In this document: piece after piece, positions 34,939 through 46,820 of the stretch | How positions within the stretch are numbered: position 1 is the first letter of the stretch | How the letters are laid out: each line of letters opens with the position of its first letter | From: an uncultured Chloroflexia bacterium | GTDB taxonomy: Bacteria; Chloroflexota; Limnocylindria; Limnocylindrales; CSP1-4 | Assembly (NCBI GenBank): GCA_963707215.1 | Contig: CAVPPB010000003.1 | Coordinates: 960,001-1,024,000, forward strand | Reading direction: 5' to 3' | Length of the DNA stretch: 64,000 nt | Translations under genes and position numbers: made by a program | The notes under the pieces: generated by a model | The model's database searches: none | The model's input: only the letters and a program-made list of their open reading frames with translations | What the model was told of the DNA's origin: nothing

Positions 34939-36128
34939 GCGTGGACCTCCGTGTGAGCGTGCTCCGGCTCGCCGGGAACGACGTCGTCGAGCGGCACGTC
35001 GACCGGTCCTGGCCGGGCCAGGACCTCGGCCAGGGCCGGCGGGATGGGATCGACCGAGTCCCAGTCGACCGGCAGGCGGACCGAGATGTCCTCGGGGCGG
35101 ACCGTCGCGGCCCGGGCGCCGGCCACCGGGTCGGCGGTCCACTCGATGGCCACCGCGCCGCTGGTGAACCCGGCCCCGAAGGCGACGATGACGATGCGAT
35201 CGCCGACCTTCACCCGGCCGGAGTCGACCGCCTCGGCCAGCGCCAGCGGGACCGACGCTGCCGAGGTGTTCCCGTAGCGGTCGACGTTGACGAACATCCG
35301 CTCCATCGGCAGGTCGAGACCCTTGGCCACCGCCTCGATGATCCGGATGTTGGCCTGGTGCGGGATGAACAGGTCGATGTCGTCGGGGTGGAGGCCAGCC
35401 CGCTCGATGGCCGCGAGGGCCGTGGAGGCAAGGGTCTTCGTGGCGAAGCGGTAGGTCTCACGGCCCTCCATCCGGATGAAGTGCTCGCCCCGGGCGAGCG
35501 TCTCGGATGATGGCGGGCTCTTGGCTCCCCCCGCGGGCAGCCAGATCATGTAGGCGCCCTGGGGCTCGGTCGTCAGCTCGACGCCCAGCGCCCCGCCCGG
35601 CTCATCGCGCCCCGAGACGACCACCGCTCCGGCGCCGTCCCCGAACAGGATGCAGGTGCCCCGGTCGGTGTAGTCGAGGAAGCGGGTCAGCAGCTCGGCG
35701 CCGACGACCAGGACGTGGCGAGCCAGACCGGCCGTCACGTACGCCTGGGCCGTGGAGAAGGCGTAGACGAAGCCGGAGCAGGCGGCCGCGACGTCCATCG
35801 CGGCGGCACGCGTGTTCCCGATCGCTTCCTTCACCAGCGCCGCCGTCGACGGCATCCAGTAGTCGGGGGTCAGCGTCGCGACGAGGATGAGGTCGACGTC
35901 GTCGGGCTCGATCCCGGCGACGCGGATGGCCCGCAGGCCGGCGGTCGCGGCCATCGAGGCCGTCGTCTCGTGGGCGGCGGCGACCCGTCGTTCGCGGATC
36001 CCGGTCCGGGTGACGATCCACTCGTCGTTGGTGTCGACCATCCGCTCGAGGTCGGCATTGGTCAGGACACCGGCCGGCGCGTAGGAGCCCCAGCCGGTCA
36101 CGTGAGCGCGCATTCCAGGATCGGTCAT
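34935..36128 (-). CDS. fabH: 3-oxoacyl-ACP synthase III
   Basis: RTGIRERR, AACSGF, LFGDGAGA, PHQAN, GNTSAAS, FGAG; about 60-aa C-terminal extension. Confidence 0.95.
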   Translation of the reverse strand: MTDPGMRAHVTGWGSYAPAGVLTNADLERMVDTNDEWIVTRTGIRERRVAAAHETTASMAATAGLRAIRVAGIEPDDVDLILVATLTPDYWMPSTAALVKEAIGNTRAAAMDVAAACSGFVYAFSTAQAYVTAGLARHVLVVGAELLTRFLDYTDRGTCILFGDGAGAVVVSGRDEPGGALGVELTTEPQGAYMIWLPAGGAKSPPSSETLARGEHFIRMEGRETYRFATKTLASTALAAIERAGLHPDDIDLFIPHQANIRIIEAVAKGLDLPMERMFVNVDRYGNTSAASVPLALAEAVDSGRVKVGDRIVIVAFGAGFTSGAVAIEWTADPVAGARAATVRPEDISVRLPVDWDSVDPIPPALAEVLARPGPVDVPLDDVVPGEPEHAHTEVHA

Positions 36129-36781
36129 AGAGGCTCCACCTCGAGGAGGGGCTGCTTCGCCTTCACCAGCTGCCCGTTCTCGGCCGCCACCCGGACGACC
36201 CGGCCCGACAGGTCGGACTTGATCTCGTTGAAGAGCTTCATCGCCTCGATCAGGCCGATGACCTGGCCGGCGACGACCTCCTGGCCGACCGTGACGAACG
36301 GCGCCGAGCCCGGCGACGGGGCCGCGTACCAGATGCCGGTCAGCGGCGCCTTGACCGAGGGTCGGCCGATCGGCGCGGCATGGGCGGCCGCCTCACCGGC
36401 CGGCCCACCGCCCGTGACCGGGGGGCCACCATCCGCCGGACCTGCCGGGGCGGCACCGGGCCCACCCGCCGGCACCGTGATCGCGATGGCCTCGGCGCGC
36501 CGGAGCACCAAGCCGGTGCCGCCCGCCTCCACCTCGAGCTCGACCAGGTCGCTGCCCTCGAGAACGGCAGCCAGCCGATCGACGAGCGCGAGCAGCGACG
36601 CGTCCGTCGAGCCGCGTTTCGGGAGGGTCGCGGCGGCCGAGTCCGATACAGGATCCGGATCCGACGCGAGGGCCGGGTCCGACGCGGGGGCCGGGTCCGA
36701 CGCCGCGCCATGCGCCTGCGCCTGCGCCTGAACGCCGTCGAACGACCCGTCCGGGACTGCCTGCGGCTCATGCTCGGTCAT
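36125..36781 (-). CDS. accB: Biotin carboxyl carrier protein (canonical)
   Basis: APLTGIWY, biotinylation motif IEAMKLFNEI. Confidence 0.93.
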   Translation of the reverse strand: MTEHEPQAVPDGSFDGVQAQAQAHGAASDPAPASDPALASDPDPVSDSAAATLPKRGSTDASLLALVDRLAAVLEGSDLVELEVEAGGTGLVLRRAEAIAITVPAGGPGAAPAGPADGGPPVTGGGPAGEAAAHAAPIGRPSVKAPLTGIWYAAPSPGSAPFVTVGQEVVAGQVIGLIEAMKLFNEIKSDLSGRVVRVAAENGQLVKAKQPLLEVEPL

Positions 36782-38043
36782 CCGTCCCACCTCGTGAAGA
36801 CGAGGGCGGTGTTCTGGCCACCGAAGCCGAACGAGTTCGACAGGGCGACCCGGAGGTCGCGCCTGGCGGCCGTGCCGGGCGTGAGGTCGAGCCCGGCACC
36901 AGCTTCGTCGGGATCCTCCAGGTTGATCGTCGGGGGGATCGAGCCGGTCCGCAGGGCCTTGATCGTGGCCACGGCTTCGATCGCTCCGGCCGCCCCCAGG
37001 GTGTGCCCGAGCATCGACTTGTTGGCGGTCACGGCCACTCGCCGCGCGTGCTCCTCGCCGAAGATCGTCCGGATCGCCTGGAGCTCGGCCTTGTCGCCCT
37101 CGGGCGTCGAGGTCGCGTGGGCGTTGACGTGGTCGACCGCCTCGGGCGGCAGGCCGGCCTTCTCGAGCGCCCGGCGGGCGGCCCGGACGGCTCCCGTCCC
37201 GCCCGGCGCCGGGAGGGTGATGTGCGACGCGTCGGCCGTGGCCCCGTAGCCGACGATCTCGGCGAGGGGCGTCGCGTCGCGGTCCTCGGCATGCTCCAGC
37301 GCCTCCAGGACCAGCGTCCCGGCGCCCTCCCCGATGACGAAGCCATCGCGACCACGGTCGAAGGGCCGCGACGCCCCGGTCGGGTCGTCGTTGCGGGTCG
37401 ACAGGGCCTTCATCGAGCAGAAACCGCCCATCGCGGCCTCGTGCAGCGGCGCCTCGACGCCCCCGGCGAGCATGACGTCGGCATCGCCGCGGCGGATCGT
37501 CTCCCAGGCCTCGCCGATGGCGTGACCTCCGGTGGCGCAGGCCGAGCAGGTCGCGAAGTTCGGGCCGAGGGGCCCGAAGTGGATCGCGATCTGGCCAGCC
37601 CCGACATTGAGGATGCCCATCGGGATGAAGAACGGGCTGATCCGATCAGGGCCCCGCTCCGCCATCGTCAGGACGCCGTCGAACAGGGTGGAAGTGCCGC
37701 CGAGCCCCGACCCGACGATGACCCCGGTGCGCTCCGCCAGAACGCCCTCGAGCCGCCCGGGCAGGCCCGCCTGGTCCATCGCCTCGCGGGTCGCCACCAG
37801 GGTCAGCTGGATGTAGCGATCGGTCCGCCGCATGTCCTTCGGGCCGAGCACCCCGGATGCGTCCAGGTCGCGCACCTCGGCTGCCACACGCGAGGTCAGG
37901 CGCCTCGCGTCGAACGACGCGATCGGGGCCACCCCGGACCGCCCGGCGACGAGCCCGTCCCAGGTGGCCTCGACGCCCTGGCCGAGGGCGGAGACCACGC
38001 CGAGCCCGGTCACCACGACGCGGCGCGGAGCGCTCGAGTTCAT
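36778..38043 (-). CDS. fabF: 3-oxoacyl-ACP synthase II
   Basis: RRVVVTGLG, SACATG, SRPFD, GEGAG, NAHATST, KSMLGHTLGAAG, SNSFGFGGQN. Confidence 0.95.
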   Translation of the reverse strand: MNSSAPRRVVVTGLGVVSALGQGVEATWDGLVAGRSGVAPIASFDARRLTSRVAAEVRDLDASGVLGPKDMRRTDRYIQLTLVATREAMDQAGLPGRLEGVLAERTGVIVGSGLGGTSTLFDGVLTMAERGPDRISPFFIPMGILNVGAGQIAIHFGPLGPNFATCSACATGGHAIGEAWETIRRGDADVMLAGGVEAPLHEAAMGGFCSMKALSTRNDDPTGASRPFDRGRDGFVIGEGAGTLVLEALEHAEDRDATPLAEIVGYGATADASHITLPAPGGTGAVRAARRALEKAGLPPEAVDHVNAHATSTPEGDKAELQAIRTIFGEEHARRVAVTANKSMLGHTLGAAGAIEAVATIKALRTGSIPPTINLEDPDEAGAGLDLTPGTAARRDLRVALSNSFGFGGQNTALVFTRWDG

Positions 38044-38786
38044 CGGACCAGCTTCCCCGTCCTGACGGTGGCGGCCCGGTAGACGTCGCCCGCGAGACCG
38101 CGCTCGGAGATGGCGTTGGCCACCGAGAGGGCATCGAAGTCGGTCCGCCGGATCTCGGCCGTGACCTCCTCGCCATCGAGGGTGACGAGGGCCCACGAGG
38201 CTGTCGGATCGCCGTCGAAGACGAAGCCGCAGGAGCCGTCGTTGACGATCTGCTTCCAGCCGAAGTCGCGGACTTCCGGCAGGTGGGTGTGGCCGCAGCA
38301 GATGATCCGAGCATCCGTCCGGGTGATCCGCTCCAGCACCACGGTGGCGTCCAGGTCGGTGTCGAAGCCGGCCGTCTGCGATCCCGGCGACGCATGGCAG
38401 GCGAGCAGCAGGGTGTCCCCGATGCGCAGCCGGCGTTCGGCCGGCAGGCGTCGGAGCCAGGCCAGCCGCTCGTCGTCGAGCGCGTCGTGCGCCCACTCGG
38501 CGGCGGCGACGAACGACGCGGGCGGGCCCTCGGGGAACCACGGGAAGGCCGCCCCGTAGTCGGCGTCGGCCACGGCGATGTCGGTGTTGCCCTGGATGAC
38601 GAGCGCCCCGTCGGCCTCGAGCTCGCGGACGGCGTCGACAGCGCCGACCGGATCCGGCCCGTTCATGACCAGGTCGCCGGCCACGAGGATCGCGTCCGGC
38701 TTCTCCTTCTTGATCGCCTTGCGGACGGCCTCCAGGGCAACGGCGTTACCGTGGATGTCCGAGAGGACGGCGACTCGGGCACTCAC
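38040..38786 (-). CDS. Calcineurin-like metallophosphoesterase (YfcE-like)
   Basis: SDIHGN, GDLV, QGNTD, CHASP, CGHTH; overlaps both fabZ and fabF. Confidence 0.9.
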   Translation of the reverse strand: MSARVAVLSDIHGNAVALEAVRKAIKKEKPDAILVAGDLVMNGPDPVGAVDAVRELEADGALVIQGNTDIAVADADYGAAFPWFPEGPPASFVAAAEWAHDALDDERLAWLRRLPAERRLRIGDTLLLACHASPGSQTAGFDTDLDATVVLERITRTDARIICCGHTHLPEVRDFGWKQIVNDGSCGFVFDGDPTASWALVTLDGEEVTAEIRRTDFDALSVANAISERGLAGDVYRAATVRTGKLVR

Positions 38787-39253: not shown

Positions 39254-39311
39254 GGGTGCCTCCGGATGGCTGAGCGGCATGGGTCCGGCCGAACGGCCGG
39301 GAGGCGACACG

Positions 39312-40682
39312 TCATCCGCGCGTCGCGGCGGCGAGGAAGGCCCCGCTGCCGACCCGGTCGATGAGGTTGGTGGTGAAGCGGCCCTCAAGGAACACGTCGT
39401 GCCGGAGGAGGGCCCGGTGGAAGCCGACGTTCGTCTCGGGGCCGTCGAGGATGAGCTCGTCCAGGGCGGTCCGGCTGCGCTCGATCGCGGTCTGGCGGTC
39501 CGGGCCCCAGACGATCAGCTTGCCGAGGAGCGAGTCGTAGAACGGCGGGACCTCGTAGCCGGCGTAGAGGTGCGAGTCCATCCGGACGAACGGACCGGAC
39601 GGCGGCAGGTAGCGCTCGATCGTCCCGGCGCTGGGCCGGAAGTCGTGGGCCGGGTCCTCCGCGTTGATCCGGAGCTCGATGGCGTGGCCGGTCGGCCGGA
39701 TGTCGGCCTGGGTCAGCCCCAGCCGCTCCCCGGCGGCGATCCGGAGTTGCAGCGTGACGAGATCGATGCCGGTCCGGATCTCGGTGATCGGGTGCTCGAC
39801 CTGGATCCGGCAGTTGATCTCGATGAAGTACCAGCTCCCCTGGGCGTCCACAAGGAACTCCAGCGTGCCGACGTTTTCGTAGCCGGCGGCGACGACCGCC
39901 TGTACGGCCCGGCTGCAGAGCTCGTCGCGGACGGCCGGCGACAGCGACGGTGTGGGCGACTCCTCGAGGATCTTCTGGTGCCGCCGCTGGACCGAGCAGT
40001 CCCGCTCGCCGAGGTGGATGCCGTCGCCGAAGTTGTCGACGGCGACCTGGACCTCGACATGGCGGTTCTCGTCAAGCCACTTCTCCAGGTAGAGCGAGTC
40101 GTCGCCGAAGGCGGCCTTCGCCTCCGACCGGCAGACCTTCATGGCCGTCTCGAGCTCGCGGGGCGTGCGGACCATCCGCATCCCCTTGCCCCCGCCGCCG
40201 GCAGAAGGCTTGATCAGGACCGGGTAGCCGATCCGCTCGGCCTCCCCGAGGGCGTGCAGCTCGTCGCGGAGCATCCCGTCGGAGCCGGGGATCGTCGGCA
40301 GGCCGTGGGCGGCCAGGAGGCGGCGCGTCCCCTCCTTGGAGCCGAAGCGCTCGAGGACCTCCGGCGAGGGTCCCACGAACGTCAGGCCGTGGGCCCGGAC
40401 CGCCTCGGCGAACCCCTCGTCCTCCGACAGGAAGCCGTAGCCAGGATGGACCGCCTCGCAGCCGGTCACCAGGGCGGCCGAGATGATCGACGGCGCCGAG
40501 AGGTACGACCGCTTGGCGTCGGCCGGCCCGATGCAGATGGCCTCGTCGGCCAGGCGCACCGGGAGCGAGTCCCGGTCGGCCTCCGAGTACGCGACGACCG
40601 CCTCGATCCCGAGGGTCCGGCAGGCCCGCAGGATCCGCAGGGCGATCTCGCCGCGGTTGGCGATCAGGACCCGCCGGAACAT
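39312..40682 (-). CDS. accC: Biotin carboxylase
   Basis: LIANRGEIA, HPGYGFLSE, GGGGKGM, RDCSVQRRHQK, EINCRIQVEH, RINAED, YDSLLGK. Confidence 0.96.
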   Translation of the reverse strand: MFRRVLIANRGEIALRILRACRTLGIEAVVAYSEADRDSLPVRLADEAICIGPADAKRSYLSAPSIISAALVTGCEAVHPGYGFLSEDEGFAEAVRAHGLTFVGPSPEVLERFGSKEGTRRLLAAHGLPTIPGSDGMLRDELHALGEAERIGYPVLIKPSAGGGGKGMRMVRTPRELETAMKVCRSEAKAAFGDDSLYLEKWLDENRHVEVQVAVDNFGDGIHLGERDCSVQRRHQKILEESPTPSLSPAVRDELCSRAVQAVVAAGYENVGTLEFLVDAQGSWYFIEINCRIQVEHPITEIRTGIDLVTLQLRIAAGERLGLTQADIRPTGHAIELRINAEDPAHDFRPSAGTIERYLPPSGPFVRMDSHLYAGYEVPPFYDSLLGKLIVWGPDRQTAIERSRTALDELILDGPETNVGFHRALLRHDVFLEGRFTTNLIDRVGSGAFLAAATRG

Positions 40683-41377
40683 CAGGCCCCCACCGGCGTC
40701 GTGGGTCCAGCGCCGGCCCTGCCGTGGTCGGGCCCGCCGGGGCCGACCGCCACTGGGGCCGCGGGTGCTCCCGCGTGCTCGGCGCTGTCCACCCCGTCGC
40801 GCACCGCGCGGAAGGCCAGCAGGGGCTGGCCGTACTCGACGACGTCACCGTCCTCCGCGAAGGCCGTCTCCAGGACGCCGTCACCGGGTGCCACGACCTC
40901 CTGGCCGACGCCGAGGACGTCGACCCGGCCGAGGACGTCGCCTGACCGGACCCGGGCGCCCACCCGTCGGTGCTCCTCGTCGAGGTGGAGGACCCCGACT
41001 CCCGGCGACCGGCTGACGAGGGGGGCGTGGGCGAGGGCCTCGGCCAGCGGATCAGGGACCGCCGGCCCGATCGACGTCAACCGCGGGAGGTCGTCCGTCG
41101 CATGACCCTCATGGGCGACGTGCCCGGCACCCCGGCCCAGGCGACCGACCTCGCCGCGGTGGGCGCCGCGCCCGTGGTCGCTGTGCGGCTGGGCGTCGAT
41201 CCGCCGGCGCAGGCGCAGTCGCCAGGCGCCCTCGCGGACCTCGAGCTCGCCGAGGCCGGTCGCCGCGAGCCGCTCGGCGAGAGCCGGCAGCAGGTCGTCG
41301 GCGAGGCCCTCGATCGCGTCGTGGTCGGCACGGCGGGTCTCCGGGGAGCGGTCGTCGAGGGGGTGGCGGTCGGTCAT
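40682..41377 (-). CDS. AccB/BCCP paralog lacking the biotinylated lysine (BADC-like)
   Basis: BCCP-like N-terminal GLGELEVREG, SPGVG, and C-terminal EDGDVVEYGQPLL; VDVLGV replaces IEAMKL; no Lys anywhere in the ORF. Confidence 0.85.
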   Translation of the reverse strand: MTDRHPLDDRSPETRRADHDAIEGLADDLLPALAERLAATGLGELEVREGAWRLRLRRRIDAQPHSDHGRGAHRGEVGRLGRGAGHVAHEGHATDDLPRLTSIGPAVPDPLAEALAHAPLVSRSPGVGVLHLDEEHRRVGARVRSGDVLGRVDVLGVGQEVVAPGDGVLETAFAEDGDVVEYGQPLLAFRAVRDGVDSAEHAGAPAAPVAVGPGGPDHGRAGAGPTTPVGA

Positions 41378-42390
41378 CGGTCGGCCTTCGTGGTGGTCTC
41401 GGGGTCCTCACGGCGAGGGGGTCGCGGTGGCCCCATCTCGCCAAGGGTGCGACGGCCCGCGTCGATGAGGCCCTGGAGCCTGCCGGCGAGCCCGGGGCGC
41501 TCCACGACCTCGGGCGCGGCACCCGGGATCTCCTCGTATGGTCCCATGGCGCGGTAGCGAGCGTAGCGCCGCTCCAGCAGCTCGTCGATCGGGATCGCCT
41601 CGAGGGCATCGAGACGTTCGAGGAGGATGGGGCGGAGTCGCCGGGCGGTCTCGGCGGGATCGGCGTGGGCGCCCTCGTCCGGCTCCGGCACGACGTCGTC
41701 GAGGATCCCCAGCTCGAACTGGTCGAGCGCGGACATCCGCATCGCGAGCGCGGCGGTCGCCGCCTTGTCGCTGGTGCGCCAGAGGATGGACGCGCAGCCC
41801 TCCGGGCTGATGACCGAGTAGACGGCGTTCTCCAGGCCGATGACGACGTCCCCGACGGCGATCGCCAGAGCTCCGCCGGAGCCGCCCTCGCCGGTGATGA
41901 CGACGACGATCGGCGTCCGAAGTCGGGTCATCAGCCCGATCGAACGGGCGATCGCCTCGGCGACCCCACGCTCCTCCGCCGCCGGACCCGGGAAGGCGCC
42001 GGGGGTGTCGACGATCGAGATGACCGGCAGCCGGAAGCGCTCAGCCAGCTCCATCGCCCGCATCGCCTTGCGATAGCCCTCGGGGTGGGGCATGCCGAAG
42101 TTACGCCGGATGTTCTCCTCGGTCTCGGCCCCCTTCTGGTGGCCGATGACCACGACCCGTCGGCCGTCGATGCGGGCAAGGCCAGCGACGATCGCGGCGT
42201 CGTCGCCGTAGAGCCGGTCGCCGTGGAGCTCGACGAACTCATCGGCGAAGGTATCGACGAGCTCCAGCGTCCGGGGGCGCCGGAGGTTCCGAGCGAGCTG
42301 GACCCGGGCCCAGACCGACGCCTCGGCGTCTGCAGGCACGTCGGGTGGGGGCGGGCTCGGGCGATCGCGGCCGAGCAGCCGGTCAACCAC
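41374..42390 (-). CDS. accA: Acetyl-CoA carboxylase carboxyltransferase alpha
   Basis: ELHGDR, IGHQKG, NFGMPHPEGYRKA, AEERG, GEGGSGGAL, YSVISPEGCASILW. Confidence 0.96.
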   Translation of the reverse strand: MVDRLLGRDRPSPPPPDVPADAEASVWARVQLARNLRRPRTLELVDTFADEFVELHGDRLYGDDAAIVAGLARIDGRRVVVIGHQKGAETEENIRRNFGMPHPEGYRKAMRAMELAERFRLPVISIVDTPGAFPGPAAEERGVAEAIARSIGLMTRLRTPIVVVITGEGGSGGALAIAVGDVVIGLENAVYSVISPEGCASILWRTSDKAATAALAMRMSALDQFELGILDDVVPEPDEGAHADPAETARRLRPILLERLDALEAIPIDELLERRYARYRAMGPYEEIPGAAPEVVERPGLAGRLQGLIDAGRRTLGEMGPPRPPRREDPETTTKADR

Positions 42391-43525
42391 GGTCGGCCTC
42401 CCCCTCCCCGGTCGCGCCGGACTCGGAGGTCGGAGCGGAACCGGCGGTCACGGTGGATCCAGGGAGGGCGACGGGTCCCGGCCCTGGACCGGATCCGTCG
42501 TCCAGGGTGCCGGGCGAGATCGCCGCTCCGGGCGGATCGCCGGACGGCGCCCCACTGGGCGGGACCGTCGGCGGCGAAGATCGGGCCGCCACTGGCTCCT
42601 CGGGCAGGACCCGATCGACGAGGCCGCCCAGTCTCGAGAACGGTCGGAAGACCCGCTCGGCGGCCCCGATGGCATCGCGCTCGGCGACCCGCGGATCGGG
42701 CGGGACCAGGAAGCGAAGCAGCGTCCCCAGCTCGCCGCGCATCTCGTTGCGGGCGACGACCCGGTCCACGAAGCCGTGCTGGAACAGGAACTCCGCCCGC
42801 TGGAAGCCCGCCGGCAGCTCCGTCGCGATGGTCCCGGCGGCGACCCGGGCGCCGGCGAACCCGATCAGGGCGTTCGGCTCGGCCAGGTTGACGTCGCCGA
42901 GGGCTGCGTACGAGGCGAACACCCCGCCGGTCGTCGGGTCGGTCATGACGGACAGGTAGGGCACGGCCGCGGCCCGCAGCCGCTCGAGGGCGGCGACGGT
43001 CTTGGCAAGCTGCATTAGGGCGAACGTCCCCTCCTGCATCCGGGCGCCGCCGGAGGCAGAGACGACGATCAGCGGGGTCCGCTCGGCCAGGGCCGCCTCG
43101 GCCGCCCTGGTGACCTTCTCGCCCACGACCGCGCCCATGGAACCGCCCATGAAGCCGAAGTCCATGACGCAGATCGCTACGCGCTGGCCGTCGATGCGCC
43201 CGAAGCCCCAGACCGCGGCGTCGCGAAGGCCGGTGGCGACCTGGGCCGCGGCAAGCCTGTCCGGGTATGGCTTCTGGTCCACGAAGCCGAGTGGATCCAC
43301 CGACACTAGCCCGGCGTCGCGCTCATCCCAGCTGCCTGGGTCGAGCACGAGGTCGAGTCGGGCAGCCGCGCTCAGGCGGAAGTGATGGCCACAGTTCGGG
43401 CAGACCCGACCCTGCTTCTCGAGCTGCTTGTTGAAGAGCAGCTCCTCGCAGGAAGGGCACTTGGTCCACAGGTCGGCCGGGTACGACTCCTTGCGCGATC
43501 GGAAGGACGGCAGGCGGATCGGCAT
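42383..43525 (-). CDS. accD: Acetyl-CoA carboxylase carboxyltransferase beta, with Pro/Gly-rich C-terminal extension
   Basis: Zn finger WTKCPSC...CPNC, FMGGSMG, SGGARMQEG, DPTTGGV, GFAG. Confidence 0.96.
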   Translation of the reverse strand: MPIRLPSFRSRKESYPADLWTKCPSCEELLFNKQLEKQGRVCPNCGHHFRLSAAARLDLVLDPGSWDERDAGLVSVDPLGFVDQKPYPDRLAAAQVATGLRDAAVWGFGRIDGQRVAICVMDFGFMGGSMGAVVGEKVTRAAEAALAERTPLIVVSASGGARMQEGTFALMQLAKTVAALERLRAAAVPYLSVMTDPTTGGVFASYAALGDVNLAEPNALIGFAGARVAAGTIATELPAGFQRAEFLFQHGFVDRVVARNEMRGELGTLLRFLVPPDPRVAERDAIGAAERVFRPFSRLGGLVDRVLPEEPVAARSSPPTVPPSGAPSGDPPGAAISPGTLDDGSGPGPGPVALPGSTVTAGSAPTSESGATGEGEADRG

Positions 43526-44646: not shown

Positions 44647-45546
44647 TTACACCCCCGGACCGGCGGCGGCCGGCGGCGTCGCGCCGACGACCCTGACCCG
44701 GTCGACGTCAGCCGCGAGGACGATCCGCTCGCCGCCGGGCGCCGAGTCGTCGGCGATCACGAGGCCGCCCGACCCCGGGTCCACGCCGAGGGCACGGGCG
44801 TCCTCGGTGTGCGCCTCGCCGGTCCCGCTCAGGCGCACCATCCGCCCGGTGGTCGCCTGGCGGCCGATCCAGTCGTCCATCGCGAAACGACCCAAGCGCA
44901 GCGCCTCGACCCGCGGCTCGAGACGGGCGAGGAAGCCGTCCAGCAGCAGGGTCGGATCCACCGGGCGACCACCGGAGGCGACGCGAAGGCTCGTCATGCT
45001 GGGCGCCAGCTCGGGCGGGAAGGCGTCCTCCGGCCAGTCGGCGTTCAACCCGATCCCGACGACGGCCCGCGGGTCCTGCGTCCCGAGGCCGTCGGTCTCC
45101 CCAAGGACCCCGCCGAGCTTGCGCAGCTCGATCGGCCCGGCCAGGAGGGCGCGTGCGGCCTGCGGGTCCATCTCGGCGACCAGCGGAGCGCCGGGCCCGG
45201 AAGTCTCGACGACGAGGTCGTTCGGCCACTTGAGCCGGATCGCGCCGTCGGGCAGACCGGCGGCGTCCTCGGACGCGTCGGCCATCGCGAGCGCGACGAC
45301 GGCCGCCAGCCTCCAGGCCCGGGCCGGCTCCAGGTACTTCGGCCGGAAGCCGACCGACAGCAGGAGCCCGGCCCCGACCGGCGCCGTCCAGCGGCGGCCG
45401 GCCCGGCCACGCCCGGCCGTCTGCTCGTCGGCGACAGCCAGGCAGACCTCGTCGGTGCCGTCGGCAAGCCAGGCCCGGACGACGTCGTTCGTGGAGCCGA
45501 CGGCGTCGAAGCGCTGGCTGCGGGCCAGGAACGGCCGGCCGCTCAG
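44647..45546 (-). CDS. birA: Biotin--[acetyl-CoA carboxylase] ligase (no HTH), probable CTG start
   Basis: In frame upstream of the tracked ORF: VGSTND, ADEQTAGRGRAGRRW; then LKWPND, KLGGVL, GIGLN. CTG at 45546 overlaps the lysC TGA and has GGAGG upstream. Confidence 0.88.
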   Translation of the reverse strand: MSGRPFLARSQRFDAVGSTNDVVRAWLADGTDEVCLAVADEQTAGRGRAGRRWTAPVGAGLLLSVGFRPKYLEPARAWRLAAVVALAMADASEDAAGLPDGAIRLKWPNDLVVETSGPGAPLVAEMDPQAARALLAGPIELRKLGGVLGETDGLGTQDPRAVVGIGLNADWPEDAFPPELAPSMTSLRVASGGRPVDPTLLLDGFLARLEPRVEALRLGRFAMDDWIGRQATTGRMVRLSGTGEAHTEDARALGVDPGSGGLVIADDSAPGGERIVLAADVDRVRVVGATPPAAAGPGV

Positions 45547-46820
45547 CCGATCCCCTCCGCCATCGCCTCGGCCACCTCGGCCGGCTCGGGTCGCTCGAGC
45601 TCGAAGGCGGCATGGAGCGCCCGAACCGCGGTCTCGACCTGGTCCTCGGCGATCATGCAGGTGATCCGGATCTCCGAGGTGGAGATCATCTCGATGTTGA
45701 CCCCGGCCGCGGCCAGGGTCCGGAACATCCGGGCCGCGTACCCGGGGGCGTTGTGGATGCCGGCCCCGACGATCGAGACCTTGGCGACCGAAGAGTCGGT
45801 CGTCAACTCGCGGAATCCGAGGTCGCGGACGATCGGCTCGAGCACCCGCTTCGCCGCCGCCAGGTCGACGGCCGGGATGGTGAACGACAGGTCGGTCGCG
45901 CCGTGGTGGCCGACGTTCTGGACGATCATGTCGACGTTGATGCCGGCGTCGGCGAGCGGCTCGAAGACGGCCGCTGCGACGCCCGGTCGATCGGGCACTT
46001 CGACGAGGGTCGCCTTGGCCACGTTGCGATCGTGGGCGATCCCGCGGACCTTGTTCCGCTGCTCCACGAGCGGGTCCTCCTTGATCAGCGTTCCGGGTAC
46101 GTCCTCGAACGAGGACAGGACCTCGATGACGACAGCGTTGACCCAGCCGAGCTCGACCGCTCGGACCTGCATGACCTGCGCCCCCTGGTGGGCCAGCTCG
46201 AGCATCTCCTCGTAGCCCACGACGGGCAGCTGGCGGGCGTCGGGGACGATCCGCGGGTCGGCGGTGTAGATGCCCAGGACGTCGGTGAAGATGCGGCAGC
46301 GGTCGGCACCGAGCGCCGCGGCCAGGGCCACCGCGGTCGTGTCCGAGCCGCCCCGGCCGAGGGTCGTCGTCTCCGCGAGCCCTGCCGCCTGGGAGCTCAG
46401 GCCCTGGAAGCCGGCCACGATGACGACCTTGCCGCCGGCCAGCTCGGCGTGGACCCGGGCCGGATCGATCCCGGCGATGCGGGCCCTGCCGTACGTGCCG
46501 TCGGTGGTGATCCCGGCCTGGGCCCCCGTCAGCGAGATGGCCGGACAGCCGAGGGCCTGGAGGGCCATCGAGACGAGGGTCGCGCTCTGATGCTCACCGG
46601 TCGCCAGGAGCATGTCGAGCTCGCGCGCGTCGGGCTCGTCGGTGACGGCCGCGGCCAGGGCCAGCAGCTCGTCCGTCGTGTCGCCCATCGCGGAGACGAC
46701 CACGACCAGGTCGGCGCCGGCCTCGCGGTCGGCGGCGATCCGGGTGGCGACCCGACGGATCCGTTCGGCGCTGCCGACCGAGGACCCGCCGAACTTCTGG
46801 ACGATGAGGGGGGCTGCCAT
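45543..46820 (-). CDS. lysC: Aspartate kinase with two ACT domains
   Basis: VQKFGGSSV, SAMGDTTD, LLATGE, TTLGRGGSDTTAV, TADPR, STSEIRI. Confidence 0.95.
   Translation of the reverse strand: MAAPLIVQKFGGSSVGSAERIRRVATRIAADREAGADLVVVVSAMGDTTDELLALAAAVTDEPDARELDMLLATGEHQSATLVSMALQALGCPAISLTGAQAGITTDGTYGRARIAGIDPARVHAELAGGKVVIVAGFQGLSSQAAGLAETTTLGRGGSDTTAVALAAALGADRCRIFTDVLGIYTADPRIVPDARQLPVVGYEEMLELAHQGAQVMQVRAVELGWVNAVVIEVLSSFEDVPGTLIKEDPLVEQRNKVRGIAHDRNVAKATLVEVPDRPGVAAAVFEPLADAGINVDMIVQNVGHHGATDLSFTIPAVDLAAAKRVLEPIVRDLGFRELTTDSSVAKVSIVGAGIHNAPGYAARMFRTLAAAGVNIEMISTSEIRITCMIAEDQVETAVRALHAAFELERPEPAEVAEAMAEGIG

Follow-up and report, generated by a model that had tools for sequence, protein, structure and literature searches.

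BADCs, which arose in algae and in which the turn reads xFG, are homologs of BCCP (biotin carboxyl carrier protein, encoded by accB) that lack both the biotinylation motif and its lysine and are found in plants and algae beside a true BCCP (BADC1 to BADC3 in Arabidopsis). The plant literature treats these non-biotinylated BCCP mimics as regulatory subunits of the plastid enzyme. They are described, in the accessible portions of the sources, as proteins without the AMKL motif that bind both biotin carboxylase (BC) and BCCP and have been proposed as the "glue" of the active holoenzyme (PMC11926652, PMC12706156), with a debate on whether they are inhibitors, assembly "glue," or both (PMC12706156, PMC13585458). 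We found a bacterial gene of this kind in a 64,000-nucleotide stretch of DNA (here, the window) from an uncultured Chloroflexia bacterium (GenBank assembly GCA_963707215.1, contig CAVPPB010000003.1, positions 960,001 to 1,024,000 of the forward strand), assigned to the class Limnocylindria in the GTDB. The gene, called X in this work, lies between accA and accC in an operon of acetyl-CoA carboxylase (ACC) and fatty acid synthesis genes, and its product keeps the whole BCCP architecture with a glycine at the biotin attachment position. We consider it fairly likely that X belongs to ACC as a subunit without a catalytic role, docked on BC, and is thereby a functional analogue of the plant BADCs.

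Like the BADCs, X has lost the lysine and coexists with a true carrier, here AccB, and a model puts it in contact with BC; the BADCs were compared through their published descriptions. However, X is bacterial, operon-encoded, coupled with accA and accC, and without a transit peptide, whereas BADCs are nuclear-encoded and targeted to the plastid, and the analogy probably reflects an independent origin, by convergence. Another "glue" to which X can be likened, also by description, is the non-catalytic epsilon subunit of actinobacterial acyl-CoA carboxylases, which assembles and activates the holoenzyme according to PMC11926652 (citing Gago et al.), a source whose accessible text does not mention a derivation from BCCP. 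The ACC described in the accessible part of a Chloroflexus paper concerns a fused BC-BCCP and a canonical motif (PMC11077971). According to a summary of Conrado et al. 2024, that study asked at what point the regulatory genes of the ACCase "arose in autotrophic eukaryotes" (PMC11439503). We found no description of a bacterial lysine-less BCCP in the literature, although most subscription journals were outside the search, so the absence is unproven. A bacterial counterpart, operon-encoded and fixed in a whole class, would offer a simple system for the role of a carrier-shaped subunit that has no cofactor, and many further lineages of Chloroflexota have relatives of it.

The structure of X was modelled with AlphaFold2 from the family alignment (mean predicted local distance difference test [pLDDT], 74.9). 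The N-terminal domain is a helix (residues 12 to 40) followed by two strands (residues 44 to 49 and 52 to 57), with pLDDT values of 79 to 91; residues 62 to 97 of the linker are below 50, and the blocks of the C-terminal domain reach 96 to 98. The tail that follows is absent from, or different in, most homologs. Like X, AccB/BCCP of E. coli (1BDO, 4HR7) has an alpha/beta/beta motif, a flexible linker, and a barrel-sandwich C-terminal domain; that motif comprises its first 30 residues, according to the available text of PMC11160672, and the N-terminal element of X matches it. Foldseek placed the C-terminal domain of X on E. coli BCCP (1bdo; E value 1.7e-5, TMt 0.79, and an rmsd of 2.1 for 75 columns), on 4hr7_G (TMt 0.81), on 2d5d_A (TMt 0.87), on the BCCP of Pyrococcus, and on BCCP1 of Arabidopsis (9a87); 1bdo, 4hr7_G, and 9a87 were among its best matches.

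At the sequence level the likeness is fainter. The Pfam Biotin_lipoyl domain (PF00364) was found at residues 138 to 187 with 22.1 bits, exactly the gathering cutoff (24.4 bits in a six-frame search of the genome), and the NCBIfam BCCP equivalog TIGR00531 gave 21.8 bits against a cutoff of 115.2, compared with 102.5 for the AccB of the operon. X and this AccB are 33% identical over 49 amino acids (BLASTP, E value 2e-5), and in their alignment G156 stands opposite the biotinyl lysine (VDVLGV versus IEAMKL). Set against the canonical AccB family, X has the barrel-sandwich fold and the layout of N-terminal domain and linker, lacks the biotinyl lysine, and falls below the TIGR00531 cutoff; it has DVLG for EAMK, a linker rich in Arg, Gly, and His instead of Ala and Pro, and a shorter thumb segment. 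An earlier note, made from the letters of the window, had described a 231-amino-acid protein of AccB layout between accA and accC, a turn GRVDVLGV in place of IEAMKL, and a canonical accB (EAMK) later in the same operon. The open reading frame, the structural model, the Foldseek matches, and the alignment with AccB bear out the first claim and the position of G156 the second, and the canonical gene is indeed present downstream of fabF (Table 1).

The operon reads, on the minus strand, accD-accA-X-accC-fabZ-metallophosphoesterase-fabF-accB-fabH. The stop codon of accA overlaps the start of X (ATGA), and the stop of X overlaps the start of accC (TGATG); these overlaps couple the translation of X to that of the genes on either side. 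A look through sequencing runs listed no RNA run that holds the sequence and, for DNA, a best share of 0.12. The genome (3.26 Mb in five contigs) has a single copy of X, detected with 218.6 bits by a profile built from 41 sequences (A2), and also a single canonical AccB, to which the same profile cross-matches with 53.9 bits (E value 3.5e-14).

A homolog search gathered 111 proteins, including that of the window, and none of them contains AMK. Nearly all read V-D/E-x-L-G-V/I and then (A/V)VEYGQ; source names, given for few of them, were Candidatus Limnocylindrales and Candidatus Dormibacteraeota metagenome-assembled genomes (MAGs). In this search and in the one of a 5.8-billion collection (below), many of the proteins carry the JGI label "acetyl-CoA carboxylase biotin carboxyl carrier protein," which is relevant for annotation, as these proteins cannot carry biotin. 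In the N-terminal domain, the family alignment shows an invariant L37, nearly invariant E44, E46, R48, R55, and R57, and a conserved motif, LGELEVREGxWRVRLRR. Further on there is almost no variation at L155 and G156 and none at V180, E181, Y182, and G183, and at least 90% of the sequences have Q184.

The gene is found throughout the class. All 201 class genomes, nine of which are flagged as unpublished and were counted in tallies only, match the X profile at an E value of 1e-5 or better, and 197 of them do so at 4.4e-18 or better, above the level of the AccB cross-match; the remaining four (G159, G073, G103, and G181), 69 to 88% complete, gave 1e-9 to 1e-11. A lysine-less gene with the Gly turn directly follows accA in 20 out of 20 loci that cover the five families of the class (f1 to f5). 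The order accD-accA-X-accC holds in f1, f2, and f4, and in f3 and f5 accC lies a few kilobases further on or outside the stretch retrieved. Orthologs that keep the MK would have spoken against the earlier note, and no class ortholog does so. D-x-L-G was found in the 33 sequences of the same family (32 loci plus the window). The complete absence of lysine that had been stressed there is true of the window copy, with 0 Lys when 4.1 would be expected from the 1.8% Lys of eight neighbouring operon proteins (P of about 0.015), but it is not a conserved trait: the same 33 sequences have 0 to 6 Lys, and only the window copy has none. What is conserved is the absence of the lysine of the turn.

Both folded domains of X are under strong purifying selection. 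Among the 35 closest pairs of the same family (accC dN < 0.06), with dN and dS summed by region, the ratio of nonsynonymous to synonymous substitutions (dN/dS) was 0.061 in the N-terminal domain (residues 17 to 58), the most constrained part of X, and 0.145 in the C-terminal domain, in both cases far below the value near 1 that would have refuted the earlier note. The linker evolves faster than either domain (0.393), and the tail gave a value of about 1 (one pair).

The linker of the window copy is, as the same note had remarked, rich in His (seven in residues 59 to 117). X linkers as a group have 4.3% His, 12.2% Arg, and 15.4% Gly, versus 1.2% His, 30% Ala, and 18% Pro in seven canonical AccB linkers. 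However, at least three His are present in 47 of the 92 X linkers that could be parsed and none in 13, and the His pattern is conserved solely among the closest relatives of the window copy (P0001 to P0008). With His so patchy and lineage-specific and the linker dN/dS at 0.393, the proposal that the linker senses pH or metals was rejected as a property of the family. A separate linker motif, LPxLT[SA][VI], is present in 22 of the 111 homologs (LPRLTSIG in X, residues 98 to 105, positions 41063 to 41086 of the minus strand) and may serve for docking.

A complex of X and AccC was modelled with one alignment for each protein, in three runs and with three controls. The ipSAE was 0.76 (0.74, 0.76, and 0.76 in the runs), while the best of the three controls gave 0.00; that mark is reached by 116 of 157 solved complexes and by 2 of 215 mismatched pairs. 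The contacts agreed by at least 66% between runs, and the pLDDT of the partner was at least 58. On X the contacts comprise residues 126 to 129 (the GVGV of SPGVGV), 154, 155, and 157 (the V-L-G-V turn), and 179 and 181 to 184 (VEYGQ), positions at which the family varies little or not at all; on AccC they comprise residues 34, 49 to 53, 59, 64, 65, 67 to 69, 71 to 73, and 98. BCCP of E. coli sits on BC at helix 64-73 in PDB 4HR7, as stated in the available text of a preprint (bioRxiv 10.64898/2025.12.30.697075), and the modelled contact of X is likewise on this helix. The accessible part of a study of E. coli ACC tubes places the C-terminal domain of BCCP at a non-catalytic site made of BC and the AccD N terminus, with the N-terminal alpha/beta/beta motifs modelled as an oligomeric barrel (PMC11160672).

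From these models and the published descriptions we propose how X may act. The pseudo-biotinyl domain would dock via SPxVG, V-L-G-V, and VEYGQ on the N-terminal domain of BC, at the site (helix 64-73) that in E. coli is the non-catalytic "parking" place of BCCP, and the N-terminal helix and hairpin would co-oligomerize with their counterpart in the canonical AccB. In this way X would act as a scaffold or "glue" for the holoenzyme of BC, BCCP, and carboxyltransferase (CT), leaving the shuttling of carboxybiotin to AccB alone. Less likely, it could be a competitor that tunes the number of BC sites open to the real carrier. We favour the scaffold over a pure inhibitor, since X is coupled to its operon neighbours and occurs in nearly all genomes of the class. 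The comparison with BADC already drawn in the earlier note is reasonable as far as X is a conserved, non-biotinylatable paralog that coexists with AccB, has its folded domains under purifying selection, and is placed on AccC by the model.

The earlier note had missed how far lysine-less BCCP-like genes extend across the phylum. Over 401 sampled genomes of Chloroflexota, at least 195 match the X profile at an E value of 1e-16 or better. From 59 genomes outside the class (samples of each group, many of them MAGs) we took 59 genes. The N-terminal domain is kept in all of them, and so is the (P)VEYGQ end. Their usual place, as judged by Pfam and BLAST of the neighbours, is (aroQ)-pepP-efp-[BCCP-like]-xseA-(DUF212). 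EAMK is kept in 16 of them, with efp and/or xseA adjoining in 14, and the lysine is replaced in 43, with efp and/or xseA adjoining in 40; the replacements are N (18), G (13), R (6), A (2), and one each of Q, E, S, and M. The efp-linked lysine-less genes (with titles that include Ktedonobacterales, Ktedonobacteraceae, and Chloroflexia) share with X the layout, VEYGQ, and the loss of the lysine, and, where checked, they too coexist with a fabF-linked canonical AccB. Unlike X, they occupy the pepP-efp-[gene]-xseA slot and have a varied turn residue, a full-length thumb segment, and short linkers. They are the closest relatives of X. Two lysine-less proteins from the collection of representatives described below are unusual: P0148 (233 amino acids) has two tandem lysine-less biotinyl-like domains, and P0112 (546 amino acids) has four stretches that match the lysine-less profile.

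Where checked, the loss of the lysine goes together with a second gene of BCCP type. A canonical AccB (IEAMKVFNEI) was seen next to fabF in four lysine-less genomes (G345, G239, G325, and G261). We ran a profile of fabF-type AccBs (A3) over the same 401 genomes, with four unpublished ones entering the tallies only, and in the lysine-less genomes with a reported position the best match was always away from the efp-linked gene (among them G345, G434, G420, G305, G518, G395, G341, G409, G228, G437, G357, G479, G309, G205, G317, G516, G532, G551, G230, G301, G528, G277, G287, G458, G269, G261, G239, and G325). In the lysine-retaining G449, G378, G407, G435, G470, G414, and G512, the best match was the efp/xseA-linked gene itself. 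G470 and G474, also lysine-retaining, have extra stand-alone BCCP-like genes that keep the lysine, and no fabF was found beside these extra genes. The association is drawn from the positions reported and the genomes inspected, and since the genomes are related to each other it is a pattern and not a statistical test. It does offer a natural contrast, as some sister lineages have one lysine-retaining BCCP and others a pair, with and without the lysine.

Larger collections were searched with a profile of 22 lysine-less efp-linked proteins (A4). Among 1.84 billion representatives there were 42,275 matches at an E value of 1e-3 or better and 813 at 1e-30 or better, totals that include canonical BCCPs. 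The best 150 have K in 78 cases, another residue in 63 (N 26, G 12, R 11, Q 5, H 4, S 2, and D, A, and T 1 each), and an unreadable pattern in 9. In a 5.8-billion collection, the best 120 of 1150 matches at 1e-20 or better include none with K at that column (N 116, R 3, Q 1), and those with a name are Ktedonobacteraceae. Species-representative genomes were scanned with [DES]Gx[PV]VEYGQP, a pattern that catches canonical BCCPs of many phyla as well, and of the 80 loci kept, 61 are lysine-retaining (with titles from many other phyla) and 19 lysine-less. The titles of the latter are Chloroflexota, Chloroflexi, Chloroflexia, or Ktedonobacterales in 14 cases and "bacterium" in 4. As far as this sampling goes, proteins without the lysine seem to be restricted largely to Chloroflexota. 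The remaining lysine-less locus (L166, with an IEVMMV gene) is titled "Sphingomonadaceae bacterium," a taxonomic label that is doubtful.

The ancestor of X appears to be an efp-linked gene of BCCP type from Chloroflexota and not the accB nearby. The X profile gives the efp-linked genes 72 to 106 bits and the fabF-linked AccBs 34 to 56. In a quick maximum-likelihood tree (95 sequences, 158 columns, SH-aLRT support), the fabF-linked AccBs form one group (85), and the efp-linked VDVLGV genes of family f22 are the sister group of X of the window together with f1, f2, and f4 (90). A starred branch sets 45 lysine-less sequences of G/R type apart from the rest, and the N-type lysine-less genes nest separately among lysine-retaining ones; hence, the lysine was lost at least twice. 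The efp-linked gene would have lost it in lineages with a second, fabF-linked AccB, and in the class of the window it would have left its place between efp and xseA for the acc operon. In the genome of the window, efp is directly followed by xseA (contig C3:175127-178684, L235), and no BCCP-like gene was found between them.

Several observations weigh against the docking role or the origin proposed. The X-AccC model reproduces a solved site, so its score may be a recall of 4HR7, and it should be taken as a likeness to a known site and not as proof that X binds. From SPGVGV to the next conserved Gly, the thumb region of X is about five residues shorter than in the AccB of the operon (by comparison of sequences), and some BCCP contacts may have been lost with it. 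The whole-gene median dN/dS over 496 pairs is higher in X (0.454) than in accA (0.300) and accC (0.218), values inflated in all three genes by saturated, GC3-biased dS. Outside the class, the lysine-less gene is tied to efp/xseA and was not found beside acc genes in the classes sampled, so that there its putative link to ACC is one of homology. An approximately unbiased (AU) test did not reject a single clade of X and the fabF-type AccBs (P = 0.12); therefore, the origin is something that we infer from profile scores, motifs, and synteny. Finally, the scaffold and inhibitor roles are inseparable on present data.

X could also work outside ACC catalysis, by regulating acc-fab expression, by acting as a decoy of PII or of biotin protein ligase, or in partnership with some other carboxylase, which we regard as unlikely. 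A regulator would control the operon through its BCCP N-terminal domain and the Arg/Gly/His-rich linker, as reported for the N terminus of E. coli AccB, which is discussed as an expression regulator in the accessible part of a preprint on E. coli ACC (PMC11160672), and the composition of the linker, so different from the Ala/Pro-rich canonical one, would suit it. However, the linker, supposedly the part that binds nucleic acids, is the least constrained region. A partner carboxylase could be, e.g., a fused BC-biotinyl protein on contig C1 of the same genome, where a biotinyl protein is encoded at 237415-237600, and a birA-like gene lies 3 kb away from the operon. A further point for such roles is the context in the other classes sampled, with 40 of the 43 lysine-less genes beside efp/xseA and none beside acc genes. 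But canonical, lysine-retaining AccB is also efp-linked (14 of the 16 sampled genomes); therefore, this context marks ancestry and not a role away from ACC. Besides, in the class of the window the gene has been recruited between accA and accC with overlapping stops and starts, and its invariant residues fall on the modelled BC interface.

A second alternative is the original BADC model, in which X would be a purely competitive negative regulator that takes the place of AccB on BC and lowers the flux through ACC, with no role in assembly. The modelled interface is the site of E. coli BCCP, and the first descriptions of BADCs made them inhibitors in competition with BCCP for BC (PMC12706156, PMC13585458, in their accessible parts). 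However, the E. coli site is described as non-catalytic in the available text of PMC11160672; X is encoded constitutively together with accA and accC and translationally coupled to them, no regulatory unit of its own is visible, and a pure inhibitor at fixed dosage kept in essentially every genome of the class is hard to rationalize. We thus give the purely competitive reading little credit.

That X carries a cofactor at a non-canonical attachment site, or a different cofactor, would agree with the intact fold and hairpin but is highly improbable: the window copy has no Lys whatsoever, the few Lys of its relatives are not at conserved positions and none is among the invariant or nearly invariant columns, and the residue at the turn differs from gene to gene outside the class (G, N, R, A, Q, E, S, M), which does not fit a conserved attachment chemistry. 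Equally hard to believe is that X is a copy of accB in decay, that the lysine codon was misread in sequencing or assembly, or that the frame arose by chance, as the weak family scores (Pfam at its cutoff, far under that of the NCBIfam BCCP) and the many spurious frames of high-GC DNA might suggest. These readings are refuted because the gene is present class-wide with the same substitution in 20/20 class loci and 33/33 sequences of the same family, AMK appears in 0/111 homologs, dN/dS is 0.06 to 0.15 in the folded domains, the fold is confident (C-terminal domain pLDDT 96 to 98), and the coupled start and stop codons are intact.

If the docking of X on BC is extended to its relatives, many Chloroflexota might have a five-component heteromeric ACC in which a biotin-less "structural BCCP" permanently fills the BC/AccD parking site and co-assembles with AccB through its N-terminal domain, a solution that would have evolved independently at least twice in the phylum and again in the BADCs of plants and algae. 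We put this forward tentatively, as possible rather than probable. If true, heteromeric ACCs would generally need carrier-shaped subunits for their architecture as well as for catalysis.

The coordinates of X, its parts, and its operon neighbours are collected in Table 1.

Table 1. X, its domains and motifs, and the acc genes of its operon in the window
Feature	Positions	Strand	Basis
X, lysine-less BCCP paralog, whole coding sequence including stop	40682..41377	-	Open reading frame list, ATG start, 231 amino acids
N-terminal helix and beta-hairpin domain, residues 12-57 (...LGELEVREGAWRLRLR)	41207..41344	-	AlphaFold2
Disordered Arg/Gly/His-rich linker, residues 58-117, including LPRLTSIG	41027..41206	-	pLDDT, dN/dS
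Pseudo-biotinyl (barrel-sandwich) domain, residues 118-191	40805..41026	-	pLDDT, Foldseek
Gly156 codon at biotinyl-lysine position (turn VDVLGV)	40910..40912	-	AccB alignment and translation
VEYGQ motif, residues 180-184	40826..40840	-	Invariant; at predicted AccC contact
Variable Gly/Ala/Pro-rich C-terminal tail, residues 192-231	40685..40804	-	pLDDT about 50
ATGA overlap, accA stop and X start	41374..41377	-	Sequence
TGATG overlap, X stop and accC start	40680..40684	-	Sequence
accD (carboxyltransferase beta, Zn ribbon)	42383..43525	-	Pfam Carboxyl_trans and Zn_ribbon_ACC
accA (carboxyltransferase alpha)	41374..42390	-	Pfam ACCA, E value 1.2e-114
accC (biotin carboxylase), predicted partner of X	39312..40682	-	Pfam Biotin_carb_N, CPSase_L_D2, Biotin_carb_C
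Canonical accB (IEAMKLFNEIKSD; IEAMKLF), fabF-linked	36125..36790	-	Pfam Biotin_lipoyl, 50.4 bits; TIGR00531, 102.5 bits

Downstream of accC, the likely starts of fabZ and fabF are at 39280 and 38043, and the order fabF-accB-fabH is conserved. Between fabZ and fabF, inside the operon, there is a gene for a calcineurin-like metallophosphoesterase (38040-38786, minus strand), found by BLAST at the same place in four out of five sampled loci of f1 and f2.

Upstream of the operon, at a distance of 3 kb, is the gene for a birA-like biotin protein ligase (44647-45548, minus strand). The conserved N-terminal half of its product, including GRGRAGRRW, is encoded upstream of the first in-frame ATG, GTG, or TTG (45285), and no canonical start was found between 45285 and the stop codon of lysC. 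A CTG at 45546 overlaps that stop (CTGA), which suggests either that a coupled start of non-canonical type is used or that the sequence is wrong at this place.

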